From a phage, in NCBI GenBank assembly GCA_026683435.1, contig GCA_026683435.1_4866.1: DNA of 64,000 nt; one strand, given 5' to 3'. Positions 1,167 through 5,789 of the stretch are shown here, piece after piece. Under the pieces are notes generated by a model that did no database searches, was not told the origin of the DNA, and saw only the letters and a list, made by a program, of their open reading frames with translations. Positions within the stretch are counted from its first letter, which is position 1. The number at the start of each line of letters is the position of its first letter. The translations under genes were made by a program, and so were the position numbers.

Positions 1167-1622
1167 GTTGCTTCCTTCTTACTACTATTGCTGCTTCTAT
1201 TGGTAGTCCACGACATATCCCTCGTGGGTGGGTTCGGTGTGTAACCGAATAAGTTTTTCTGTTCCCAGGGCAACGCACCAGGCTTAATTGATTTAGTTGG
1301 CAAACCAGGAACAGAAAAGGGGTATACAGACTAGGGCGCGAGGTGGCTCTGGATTGATGCGTAAGAAAAACCCAAACGGCCCTGGCCTGTAAGTTGGCCC
1401 GAAGTCACCGTGTCGGAGGACAGCCCATGCAGGTAGGCGGCAATGGACACGGTGACCGCGGAAGTGGTTCGTGTTACCCTTGACCCGTGTGTGGATACGC
1501 GTCTTATTTCGAATGCCTTCGGGATAAGGATAACACAAATAGGGCGAGCAAGTGGCAGGGATTCGAACCGTCGAAATATCCGATTATGAGTCGGGTGTTA
1601 ATTCCTCTAACTTCGCTGCTCT

Positions 1623-1691
1623 TGCTTTGACCGGTCTCGAACCGGCGACCTTCCTCAAAGAGGCTGCTCTACCTACCTGAGCTACAAAGCC
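1623..1691 (-). ncRNA. tRNA-like element, possibly a degenerate or pseudo tRNA
   Basis: Minus-strand sequence has an acceptor stem, a D-arm (GCTC/GAGC) and a good T-arm (GCCGG-TTCGAGA-CCGGT), but the anticodon arm does not fold canonically (CCTC-TTT-GAGG). Confidence 0.3.
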
Positions 1692-2472: not shown

Positions 2473-2715
2473 TTAGCCAGCGTTGAACGATTCATGAACG
2501 ACGGTCCCAGCAGGATAGTGCGTAGTGCCGATAAGAGTAACGGTCAGGGTAACCCCTTCATCCCAGCGCTCTTTCGGTAACCAGCGGCAGTCCATCCAAT
2601 GACCACGGTCGGGAGGAATTGCACACGCGGCTTGCTCCGTAGGAGCCGCCACGATTATGGAATCAAATTCATCATACCCGATATCGTCAGTTCGTTCTAG
2701 CAAGTACAAATTCAT
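2473..2715 (-). CDS. hypothetical small protein (~80 aa)
   Basis: ORF with GGAGA RBS before ATG at 2715 (ORF track started at an upstream TTG). Confidence 0.4.
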   Translation of the reverse strand: MNLYLLERTDDIGYDEFDSIIVAAPTEQAACAIPPDRGHWMDCRWLPKERWDEGVTLTVTLIGTTHYPAGTVVHESFNAG

Positions 2716-2769
2716 GTTGTTCTCCAACAGTTGACAAATCTGTGTCTTCTGTGTTGAACCTGAATTCGT

Positions 2770-2845
2770 TGGCTAAATGTGGCGGGGGCACGAGGTTTCG
2801 AACCTCGAACCTTCGGTTTTGGAGACCGGTGCGCTACCAATTGCG
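2770..2845 (-). tRNA. trnW: tRNA-Trp (anticodon CCA)
   Basis: Clean cloverleaf on the minus strand: acceptor GGGGGTA/TGCCCCC, D-arm GCGC-AATTGGTA-GCGC, anticodon loop CTCCAAA, T-arm CGAGG-TTCGAAA-CCTCG, discriminator G, encoded CCA. Confidence 0.85.
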
Positions 2846-2983
2846 CCATACCCCCAGAATCTTTACTCGGGTGCCATACGGATGGGAGGGGACTTCTTGC
2901 GCTGACCAAACAACGTCAAAACCGTATCCCGTAAACCCAACTGCTTTGGCTTATCCTGATTCTTCTTCGGCTTTTGAGACACG

Positions 2984-3454
2984 TTAAATCTCCTGGACTG
3001 GGCCACCCGTGTTGATATCAAACTTTGCAGCGATGCGAACAGCGTCTGCTGAACTCGCCCCTGCTGCCATTGCCCCGATTGCAAACTCGCAACCCGACCC
3101 AACCGCGACCGGTGGTTGCACAACCGCCATCCAGGGAAGTTCATCGTCTTCGTACTGGCCGCCAGTGTACACAACACCTTTGTCCGTAATCGCGATGTAC
3201 TTGAGCGTGATACCTTTGGGGAATCGGTGGTTGGACGTGAGACCGTTGTAACTCGTCAACGCTTCATGAACCGCTTGTACGCCAACCAGTTTTCCAGCGA
3301 CGCCATAAGCCACGATTTGATTACCATCCAAACGCCAGTTATCGCTGGGTTTGGCCATGAAGATTTTCTGCGTGTTCATGTCCAGGCGATAATCGCCTAA
3401 GGTCATCTGGCTGTCAGAAGCCAGGACTTTTCCGTCGAACGCTATCGTCGTCAT
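2984..3454 (-). CDS. HslV-like / proteasome beta-type Ntn-hydrolase peptidase
   Basis: Begins Met-Thr-Thr-Ile (N-terminal Thr nucleophile), has DSQMTLG and VAVGSGCEFA segments resembling HslV GDGQATLG and IAIGSGG; GAGGAAGG RBS; ATG overlaps the upstream stop (ATGA). Confidence 0.6.
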   Translation of the reverse strand: MTTIAFDGKVLASDSQMTLGDYRLDMNTQKIFMAKPSDNWRLDGNQIVAYGVAGKLVGVQAVHEALTSYNGLTSNHRFPKGITLKYIAITDKGVVYTGGQYEDDELPWMAVVQPPVAVGSGCEFAIGAMAAGASSADAVRIAAKFDINTGGPVQEI

Positions 3455-4026
3455 TGGGTCACCTTCCTCGGTGTGTACTCGAATGTCGTTTCCGTCAGGT
3501 AATCCTGGCGGATCCAAGTCAGCTCCTGGCCTTGCTCACACTTGATGTTCGTAACCAAACCGGCTTCAAGTGGTAGCTCACAGACCGAAACGATTCCGGG
3601 TTTATCACCGTCCCAATATGCGAATGCCGCAGCAGGGGTTGTTGCCCCGACGATGATTCCGGAATCGACGTAGTCTTCGGTAGCGGCGTCGCTGTACACC
3701 AGGTACAGTTTGAGCGTCGAAGGTTGTTTAACCTGAAATCCGAAATACGTCCCGGTGTTGCCTGAGGGAAATTCCCAGGAATGTCTGGCAGGTTCGGAAA
3801 CAAACTCCAAACCGGGATGGGAGTAATCTTCCCATCGGCCCATCTTCAGGACTACGCCTGCAGCGACATCCGTTGCGGCAACTGGACCGTCGTAGCAGCA
3901 CGCAACCGCTGGACGCTCTGCGCTAACCGGCCAGAAGGATTTGGCCTGCTCCTCGTTTTCGGCTAAGACAACCAAAACCGATTCTGGTACCTCGTTCCGG
4001 TAAAACCCGATGCGATACAAGTTCAT
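3451..4026 (-). CDS. hypothetical protein (191 aa), translationally coupled to the HslV-like gene
   Basis: Long ORF; its stop overlaps the downstream start. Confidence 0.55.
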   Translation of the reverse strand: MNLYRIGFYRNEVPESVLVVLAENEEQAKSFWPVSAERPAVACCYDGPVAATDVAAGVVLKMGRWEDYSHPGLEFVSEPARHSWEFPSGNTGTYFGFQVKQPSTLKLYLVYSDAATEDYVDSGIIVGATTPAAAFAYWDGDKPGIVSVCELPLEAGLVTNIKCEQGQELTWIRQDYLTETTFEYTPRKVTQ

Positions 4027-4933
4027 GGTTTAATTCTCCGTTTGGTTTATCATACCTCACGCAGAATCTGTAAATTTTAATCAGCCAGGTACTGGCGTTT
4101 CACAACGGGAGTACCCACCCCTCTCGTCTGTTCCGAGCCGTCAAGATCCGATCACCCCACTTTGGAGTTATCCCCCAAGTCTGCGGTTCTACACGCAGAC
4201 CCCTTTTCGACGCAACGCCGAATTCGAATCAGTTTTGGCCCGACGCCAGAGCGGAATCAGCGATAACTATCGGAGGTAAGTTCAACGACGTCTCTCCGCT
4301 GCCCAGTCCTCTGGCGCTGCCACGGTCAACTCGGATTTTGTCATGGGTGAGCAGTCGACTTTCTCGACACTCTCGCAAACCGAACTACGCCCGACGTAGC
4401 ACCGTCGGCAGGTCGGTTATTTACCGAGTACCTGAATGGGTGGTGATTGTCGGAATCCCCGCCGACGCTCACCGGTTCTGTTCCACGGCGAAAGTTTTCC
4501 AGAACATAATAAATCACGCAGTGTTAGATTGCGCTTTGTCGAAGACACCACGGTAGGTATTTTCGAAAAAGCGTCCTGGGTAACAATCCCAGGACTTGGA
4601 GCCCTAGCGTGCAGGGTTTAAAAGTGATTGGACCATTGGCGCGGTCAATCGCTATTCGCATATAACAACAAACTCACGTAATCAAAAAATTACCGGCTCG
4701 AGGCGTAGGCGTCCAGGAGCCGGTGAGTCACACAGCAGTGAGTCCCTCTGCGGGGATTTTCGTGGAGCTTGTCGTTGGAATAAAAATCCGTCCCCGGACG
4801 GGTTGGTATTGTGGGTCGACTTGTCAGAGTCTAACGACCAGGGAGGCGACCACCGAAGCTATGGGTTTTTGGACATCGAGTGGTGGTCTGAACACACGAT
4901 AGGGAAACCACGTAAAAAATACACGGGGTACCC

Positions 4934-5177
4934 GATCTCGGTCTTCCGTCCGATCACGATCTCTTAATAAGGATCACGCGCGCGCCCGCACGCGTTTTAA
5001 GATCTTAATATATTAATATATTTATTTATATAAATAATTATAATAATTAAATATAATACCTAAAGGTATTATTATATTTAATATTATTATATATTTTAAA
5101 AGATCCTGGAGGATACGGGTGCGCGCACGCGCACGCGTATAAGGAAAGGGTCTTCGACCCGATCCACAGGATCGATC
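4934..5177. other. GATC (Dam-site) cluster: 9 GATC in about 244 bp
   Basis: Counted directly: GATC at 4934, 4952, 4958, 4972, 5001, 5102, 5161, 5170, 5174. Confidence 0.7.
4973..5139. repeat. ~100-bp nearly pure AT palindromic core (centre near 5059-5068) flanked by alternating-CG tracts; candidate DNA unwinding element / origin
   Basis: Left flank cacgcgcgcgcccgcacgcg, right flank gtgcgcgcacgcgcacgcg; AT core with imperfect inverted symmetry around acctaaaggt. Confidence 0.6.
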
Positions 5178-5232
5178 TAAAAAACAATCTAAGTGATTGT
5201 TTTAAAAAGAAATTTTGAGAATTAGATTAAAT

Positions 5233-5252
5233 TATCCCCTAAGGGGGATTTT
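5233..5252 (+). terminator. hairpin atcccct-a-agggggat followed by TTTTAG
   Basis: Inverted repeat plus short T-run read directly. Confidence 0.35.
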
Positions 5253-5740
5253 AGAGTGAGTTAAACAACCCAAAGAACTCGTAAGTAACCGACAGTGTGT
5301 GTCGGTTACAGAACGATCCAGTTTTCACCCAGACATGGCACGAAGTGCTACCCAACGTGTGATCGTCGTCGCCGGCCGCGACCGTTGTCCCGGAACCGAA
5401 ACGGGAATGGCTCTCTCGCGCTCTCAGCGGCCCGCTGGCGCGATTTTCCGGTATAGGGAACCCAAGTGTACCGGGTCTGAGTTAAATCTCGTTCTAGCGC
5501 TTTCTAGAGCGTTTTTAATAACTGGTTAAAAAACATACAATCCTGAATCCCCATTCCCTGAATTTCCTCGCTCCGACAAAAATAAATTCTCTGTCTCGAT
5601 ACATAACCCCCTCTAAAACGCACGTAACCGACCCTAGAAAACGATAAACTGCCAAAAACGAGCTACCCTACGTCGATACCACCTAATCGTTTTCTGATGC
5701 TTCCCAGACCCCTTTAACCGGTTGGTTAAAAAGTAACCAA

Positions 5741-5789
5741 AAAAATAAAAAAAAAATAAGATTGGCGTACTCCCCGAAGAGAGTACGCC
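5741..5789 (-). terminator. intrinsic terminator: hairpin ggcgtactc-cccgaaga-gagtacgcc plus T-run on minus strand
   Basis: Directly downstream of the minus-strand gene ending at 5797; plus-strand A-run 5741-5760. Confidence 0.6.

Follow-up and report, generated by a model that had tools for sequence, protein, structure and literature searches.

The PPH family of proteasome homologues was described bioinformatically in 2021 as proteins of about 140 residues encoded by Caudovirales phages and prophages, and its authors termed PPH 'the first true viral member' (PMC8665760). PPH was placed as a group-I homologue near BPH and HslV, with no propeptide and no S12/H5. PPH and RPC are the only homologues without helix H2; RPC has a C-terminal extension and PPH has none (PMC8665760). 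HslV-like genes without HslU have also been noted in a related-phage genome paper (PMC7823757). Here, a PPH gene and its surroundings are analyzed in a 64,000-nucleotide stretch of phage DNA (NCBI GenBank assembly GCA_026683435.1, contig GCA_026683435.1_4866.1), which is referred to as the window. A 4-kb query over the locus showed 93-98% identity to SPN3US-like Salmonella jumbo phages (Seoulvirus, about 240 kb). The orthologous gene is already annotated as 'peptidase HslV family' in SPN3US (gp001) and in the GenBank records of many relatives. With the family published and gp001 annotated, the idea of a phage HslV-like gene at this locus is not new. What is new is a divergent PPH allele (43% identical to SPN3US gp001) inside near-identical flanks, and a previously undescribed, covariation-supported structured RNA of about 250 nt. 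We propose that the gene product is probably a minimal N-terminal nucleophile (Ntn) hydrolase of the proteasome-beta/HslV type, stripped of propeptide, H2 and C-terminal extras, which is encoded by an accessory gene and has no conserved partner.

The family placement of the protein was assessed with profiles and a structural model. PHROG 1040 ('peptidase HslV family') matches it at E=4.9e-35. The Pfam Proteasome model (PF00227) gives the single PPH sequence 12.9 bits against a cut-off of 22.4, and a precomputed PF00227 match is present in two PPH homologues. A family profile was built from 29 homologues, and further alignments of 13 and 11 sequences were made. When compared with the Protein Data Bank, the 29-homologue profile matched 251 chains, exclusively proteasome beta subunits, HslV and BPH, with best E-values of about 1e-8 for each of the three. 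The profile and structure comparison that an earlier note on this DNA had called for thus returned no unrelated fold. The AlphaFold2 model (predicted local distance difference test score, pLDDT, 95.2) has the alpha-beta-beta-alpha Ntn sandwich of the MEROPS T1 fold, and Foldseek was consistent with the family placement. A single helix (residues 56-67) lies ahead of the second sheet, where HslV and proteasome subunits carry H1 and H2, and the alignment with Escherichia coli HslV opens an 18-residue gap opposite HLVKAAVELAKDWRTDRM, the H2 segment. The protein has no propeptide and no C-terminal H5 or extension, its chain ending 10 residues after H4.

The family is large. The sequences retrieved range from 131 to 293 residues (median 154), and when clustered at 50% identity, the matches of an exhaustive profile search came to 13,199 clusters (E<=1e-3) or 9,499 clusters (E<=1e-10), in a database where canonical HslV is expected at only about 1e-4. 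Matches were found in 81 phage records, and a search with the 13-sequence alignment gave 243 confirmed IMG/VR loci. The PHROG 1040 match, the pLDDT of the model, the 9,499 clusters and the conserved MTT starts show that the gene is real and not a chance open reading frame (ORF). In its fold and catalytic residues, the protein is a proteasome-beta/HslV Ntn hydrolase.

The residues of the active site are conserved. In the 29-sequence alignment, M1, T2, T3, D14, K30, G54, G119 and G121 are invariant, and S120 and D146 are near-invariant, as is T149-G150-G151 in the family; the threonine, the lysine and the Gly-Ser-Gly (residues 119-121) that the earlier note had wished to see conserved are so, with only the serine short of invariance. 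T2, D14, K30, G54, S120, D146 and T149 are the counterparts of proteasome Thr1, Asp17, Lys33, Gly47, Ser129, Asp166 and Ser169. The Met-Thr-Thr start is also present: the 156-residue product begins MTTIAFDGKVLASDSQMTLGD (MTTIAFDG), and of the 174 family members collected up to that stage, 161 open with MTT. A 'GD-Q-TLG' segment claimed for the protein held only in part, in that D, Q and TLG are common with the GDGQATLG of E. coli HslV, whereas the actual PPH string is S-D-S-Q-M-T-L-G. E. coli HslV itself begins MTTIV, the same Met-Thr arrangement, and there methionine aminopeptidase exposes Thr1. By analogy, the host methionine aminopeptidase would remove Met1 of PPH, and Thr2 would become the N-terminal nucleophile, helped by Asp14 and Lys30. 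Gly54 would provide the oxyanion hole, with Ser120, Asp146 and Thr149 in supporting roles. PPH would be expected to hydrolyse peptide bonds and, judging from HslV and BPH, is probably a homo-oligomer.

Some points weigh against this proposal. Connectase is a proteasome homologue with the same catalytic residues, yet it acts as a ligase. The loss of H2 removes part of the surface that serves ring and activator contacts in HslV and the 20S proteasome, so ring assembly is not assured; Fuchs et al. have advised caution on ring assembly for several proteasome homologues. The searchable literature holds no experiment on a PPH, whether enzymatic, structural or genetic, and what is said of activity, oligomeric state and substrates is therefore carried over from HslV, BPH and the proteasome. 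Membership of the PPH family is probable from the defining features and from PHROG 1040, the nearest proxy for the published reference set (e.g. WP_042125023.1).

How close is the protein to HslV itself? It had been described as an HslV-like (proteasome beta-type) peptidase, a label that stands for the fold, the N-terminal threonine, the active-site set and the phage origin but not for orthology with HslV. With the NCBIfam HslV equivalogs, it scores 10.8 bits for TIGR03692 (cut-off 157.75) and 11.2 bits for NF003964 (cut-off 137), and H2 is missing. The protein is not HslV proper and is better named a member of the PPH family. The same results bear on the suggestion that PPH serves as a functional HslV surrogate, docking on, or poisoning, the HslU hexamer of the Salmonella host to redirect or block host proteolysis. 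In HslUV structures, HslU docks its C-terminal tails between subunits of HslV, and alterations of this surface are therefore of consequence; in PPH, helix H2 is deleted. Both equivalog models are missed by more than 120 bits, and the PPH profile is equally close to 20S beta subunits, BPH and HslV. Furthermore, three alleles of 36-63% identity within one genus are hard to square with one conserved host partner. We regard a surrogate of this kind as unlikely.

The locus is laid out on the minus strand (Table 1). A mechanical ORF call runs over 2984..3517, and the sensible start of PPH within it is the ATG at 3454-3452. The stop codon (TGA) of an upstream 191-aa ORF sits inside ATGA and overlaps the PPH start by 4 nt. 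From the PPH stop codon, 128 nt lead to a tRNA-Trp(CCA) on the common strand, and a terminator scan found no terminator-like site between the two; PPH is probably co-transcribed with the tRNA. The two-gene arrangement beside tRNA-Trp, as first read from the sequence, was borne out together with its coordinates.

Table 1. Features of the PPH locus, with the positions of related ATPase genes elsewhere.
Feature	Position	Strand	Basis or remark
PPH-family proteasome/HslV-like Ntn threonine peptidase homologue, 156 aa	2984..3454 (incl. stop codon)	minus	ORF call and homology
191-aa ORF, no assigned function	3451..4026	minus	ORF call; lineage-specific insertion
Shine-Dalgarno-like GAGGAAGG	3462..3469	minus	sequence inspection; 7 nt 5' of PPH ATG, within 3' end of 191-aa ORF
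tRNA-Trp (CCA)	2780..2855	minus	ARAGORN; Rfam tRNA 65.6 bits
84-aa protein, phrog_5444	2473..2727	minus	PHROG 5444 at 2.1e-36
Divergent PPH allele segment	2885..3441	minus	blastn and sliding identity
Structured RNA element, ~250 nt	4076..4325	minus	covariation
Near-invariant 29-mer TCTTGnCGGCTCGGAA(n)AGACGAGAGGGG, RNA element core	4118..4146	minus	alignment
phrog_4339 ATPase	L010:3001-4761 (MET_P1_082_240); L011:3001-4761 (SPAsTU); L009:6353-8062 (RAY gp116)		outside window

The gene order raises the question of an obligate two-component enzyme made up of PPH and the 191-aa protein. In this lineage, translation of PPH is coupled to that of the 191-aa ORF, as the ATGA overlap implies. A 99% identical PPH was found in four unannotated Logan assemblies, always with the 191-aa ORF, and the pair stands together in every contig bearing this exact allele. 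Outside this lineage the pair comes apart. The 191-aa ORF is missing in SPN3US, MET_P1_082_240, SPAsTU, phiEaH2, SPLA3 and SaP7, and no homologue was found within 6 kb of PPH in 80 IMG/VR loci. In its place SPAsTU has an unrelated 129-aa gene and phiEaH2 has nothing. A search among 5.8 billion proteins returned close homologues only (27 Seoulvirus records and a few Logan assemblies), and Pfam, PHROG, NCBIfam and PADLOC gave no match. In SPAsTU, the 54 nt found here ahead of the 191-aa ORF (4023-4076) are directly followed by PPH, so that the ORF is recognisable as an insertion; likewise, window positions 4034-4326 align immediately 5' of PPH in phiEaH2. The AlphaFold2 model of the 191-aa protein, made from a 5-sequence alignment, is unusable (pLDDT 52.6). 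The co-transcribed partner that the earlier note had suggested is thus restricted to part of Seoulvirus, and the search for the gene pair in related phages found it kept only there. A two-component enzyme is very improbable on this evidence. The 191-aa ORF is inserted, dispensable and variable in presence, and is no conserved partner of PPH.

The 84-aa phrog_5444 protein is encoded beyond the tRNA, and its homologues follow the same position in SPN3US, SPAsTU, phiEaH2 and also in IMG/VR loci without PPH. Its N-terminus (MNLYLLERTDDIGYDEFDSIIVAA) is weakly like residues 103-136 of the 191-aa ORF (KLYLVYSDAATEDYVDSGIIVGA; pairwise E=0.02), and the two proteins may share a small domain. An internal repeat in the 191-aa protein was considered and is unsupported (E=0.22). 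PADLOC linked none of the three proteins (PPH, the 191-aa and the 84-aa protein) to a defence system.

A second candidate partner is an ATPase. The statement that no HslU-like ATPase is evident nearby was confirmed for the window, which holds no HslU-like ORF and a single copy of PPH, and no HslU-like gene was found within 6 kb of PPH in the 80 IMG/VR loci. In some related jumbo phages, an HslU-like AAA+ ATPase (phrog_4339, 569-586 aa) is encoded about 100 kb from PPH. Both AAA+ segments of this protein align with E. coli HslU at 38-48% identity; it has an enlarged I-domain and is without the C-terminal docking tail of HslU (...EDLSRFIL). The ATPases are found in many Erwinia and Salmonella jumbo phages. 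The PHROG entry is listed as 'unknown function', and the gene of pSal-SNUABM-04 is annotated 'putative DnaA protein'. In Erwinia phage RAY, gp116 localises to the phage nucleus (bioRxiv 10.1101/2023.02.24.529968). RAY gp116 ('HslVU protease family') was considered as a PPH homologue and proved to be the 569-aa HslU-like ATPase. The adjacent RAY gp117 and gp118 (179 aa each) and the ORFs adjoining the Seoulvirus ATPase are not PPH-like. A 161-aa gene just 3' of the Seoulvirus ATPase (L010:4841-5326, MET_P1_082_240) matches phrog_7478, 'head maturation protease' (9e-42), and the annotation of the equivalent SPAsTU gene is virion structural protein.

Could PPH be the peptidase half of a genetically split, HslUV-like phage protease whose other half is the phrog_4339 ATPase? 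Both genes are present in Machinavirus phages and, by name, in SPAsTU, MET_P1_082_240, phage 1252, Machina, Huxley, Parshik, ChrisDB and Caitlin, as well as in pEa_SNUABM_4/8/10/42/43 and pSal-SNUABM-04, and the resemblance of the ATPase to HslU and the nuclear location of RAY gp116 also speak for such a pair. Against it, the co-occurrence is loose. In the SPN3US-type phage JN03, only residues 1-73 of the ATPase remain and PPH is retained, and few other SPN3US-type records matched the ATPase. Erwinia phage Kwan has the ATPase and a 246-aa protein in the PPH slot. In the RAY group and CR5, the ATPase is present and PPH apparently absent, with no Cronobacter record among the PPH matches, and small phages have PPH and no ATPase. 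The missing docking tail is a further point against the pairing. PPH allele type was also compared with ATPase presence, and the two do not track each other: phage 1252 and MET_P1_082_240 combine an SPN3US-type allele with a full-length ATPase. A dedicated phage HslUV pair in some lineages is possible and poorly supported. For the phage studied here, the ATPase locus lies outside the window; overall, we consider a split protease quite unlikely. Since most PPH phages have neither the 191-aa protein nor a phage ATPase, PPH needs neither, in keeping with the proposal of an accessory hydrolase without a conserved partner.

The PPH gene itself is highly variable. In a blastn comparison with SPN3US-type phages, the similarity breaks at 2884 and 3357. 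Against SPLA5c, sliding identity is 98-100% at 3442-3595, falls to 57-65% at 3322-3441 and 37-53% at 2983-3321, and recovers after about 2885, with flanks that are 94-100% identical. On this pattern, the divergent segment, which takes in nearly the whole PPH ORF and about 100 nt downstream, is best described as an allele replacement. Besides its 43% identity to SPN3US gp001, the protein is 63% identical to that of SPAsTU, the maximum for any annotated phage record, and 60% identical to that of phiEaH2. Between the SPN3US-type alleles and that of SPAsTU, identity is 36-37%, so at least three very different alleles (36-63% identical) are found in one genus. PPH can also be replaced altogether. 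An unrelated 246-aa phrog_20200 protein takes its place in three IMG/VR loci (L109, L110 and L116) and in Erwinia phage Kwan (L106:431-681). This gene lies 115 nt past the core of the upstream RNA element, the same distance as PPH, and is followed by the phrog_5444 protein and tRNAs. PPH is accessory cargo and no core gene. Its slot, between the structured RNA and tRNA-Trp, turns over fast, and small lineage-specific ORFs, here the 191-aa ORF, are sometimes inserted ahead of PPH. The turnover of the slot hints at a role of PPH in host interaction.

In other phages, the surroundings of PPH differ. The immediate neighbours vary among the 80 IMG/VR loci. The terminase large subunit is one of them in 23 of the 80, and endolysin, portal, MuF-like protein, scaffold, head-tail adaptor Ad1, Neck1 and connector genes also recur; in some loci PPH lies between Ad1 and Neck1. 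Small phages carry PPH in the late, morphogenesis or lysis part of the genome, at places where accessory genes are typically located. These positions in late and morphogenesis modules, the very small scaffold without H2 and the rapid allele turnover, which suggests a specific co-evolving target, have a bearing on another explanation. PPH could be a sequence-specific processing enzyme, a transpeptidase or ligase (connectase-like) or a small-molecule amidase, working in monomeric or dimeric form on a single target of phage or host origin. PPH lacks the S3/S4 helical insertion of connectase, and an essential prohead protease, gp245, is already present in SPN3US (PMC10052503); both points argue against it. 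We hold this explanation to be improbable and retain that of a minimal proteasome-like hydrolase. SPN3US gp1 is not mentioned in the virion proteomics papers and one supplement, the latter seemingly without 'gpN' naming.

Directly 5' of the operon lies an ORF-free element of about 250 nt that is unannotated everywhere. It is kept in 60 phage records at 73-100% nucleotide identity, across four or more jumbo-phage genera (among them Seoulvirus, Erskinevirus, Machinavirus and Wellingtonvirus). An alignment of 11 sequences shows a near-invariant 29-mer and a terminal hairpin with a GNRA loop. RNAalifold predicted 59 pairs, 25 of them with compensatory changes. In this alignment, 94.2% of cells are paired, against 38-45% when the partners are slid by 1-3 columns, and there are 61 double-change cells against 5-14 in the slid controls; none of 500 shuffles reached the observed values. 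The folding energy of the single sequence is unremarkable (z=-0.97), and the support for the structure comes from covariation only. Rfam gave no match, including in a permissive search at E<=10.

The 29-mer is unique in the window, with 0 occurrences expected by chance, and it was found in 12 IMG/VR loci, all of them jumbo-phage contigs of about 240 kb or fragments. The distance from the 29-mer to the PPH start is 119-126 nt in four loci, namely those of SPN3US, phiEaH2 and two further contigs. In SPN3US and phiEaH2, the element is the immediate 5' leader of PPH and ends about 50 nt before the start codon. Its position and conservation point to one of two roles for the element, as 5' leader of the cargo slot or as a stable RNA belonging to the tRNA region. 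A tentative and rather doubtful extension of our proposal would join the two parts of the locus. The RNA, as a cis-acting leader or as a stable non-coding RNA of the tRNA cluster that times or gates expression, would control a hypervariable slot of interchangeable cargo genes. PPH would be a mini-proteasome that works independently of an ATPase and is caught up in an arms race with a target in the host, e.g. a defence or proteostasis factor. If true, the arms race would account for three alleles of only 36-63% identity in one genus.

The wider surroundings hold further non-coding sequence. ORF-poor stretches at 4330-5756 and 1698-2470 flank the PPH/tRNA-Trp locus and are 70.5% and 80.7% identical in nucleotides to SPAsTU. 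They show no third-position bias or codon periodicity, and their indels are mostly not multiples of 3, which points to conserved non-coding DNA or RNA. At about 5000-5100, an AT-rich palindromic core contains a TTTAAA-18-TATAAT site on the minus strand. Between 2300 and 6000, 11 terminator-like hairpins were found against 4.4 expected. A second tRNA-like sequence lies at 1622-1691 (minus strand; Rfam tRNA 37.1 bits, E=5e-5); it was not called by ARAGORN, and its SPN3US counterpart is annotated 'tRNA-OTHER'.

As a finding in itself, a PPH gene at this locus adds little, the family having been described in 2021 and the orthologue annotated in GenBank/RefSeq. Viral metagenomes contain thousands of clusters of the family, and the interest lies in the biochemistry of PPH and in the upstream RNA. 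The locus offers a tractable entry point, with the amber-mutant genetics of SPN3US, natural allele swaps, natural gene replacement and the adjoining RNA.

The comparison with known systems sets the protein apart from each of the better-studied proteasome relatives. Compared with HslV (ClpQ), PPH is about 20 residues shorter (156 vs about 175 aa) and about 20-31% identical; it is without H2 (HslV about 70-88) and part of the H3/H4 connection, and no hslU gene is adjacent. Phage HslU-like ATPases occur in many of the same jumbo-phage genera as PPH, encoded by an unlinked gene whose presence does not track that of PPH. The long acidic pore loop of BPH is missing from PPH. Unlike 20S proteasome beta subunits, it has no propeptide, H2 or H5 and no alpha-type partner subunits, and the subunit of about 230-240 aa with a long C-terminal H5 that typifies Anbu is not seen here. 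The published PPH set comprised 324 nr90 sequences, whereas about 9,500 clusters at 50% identity (E<1e-10) were found here. In its features, the protein is like the published PPH: a compact subunit of 140-160 aa that starts with Met-Thr and has no propeptide, no H2 and no S12/H5, encoded by a tailed phage and keeping the Thr1/Asp17/Lys33/Gly47 set. Its gene occupies the same syntenic locus as the annotated gene of SPN3US-like phages.

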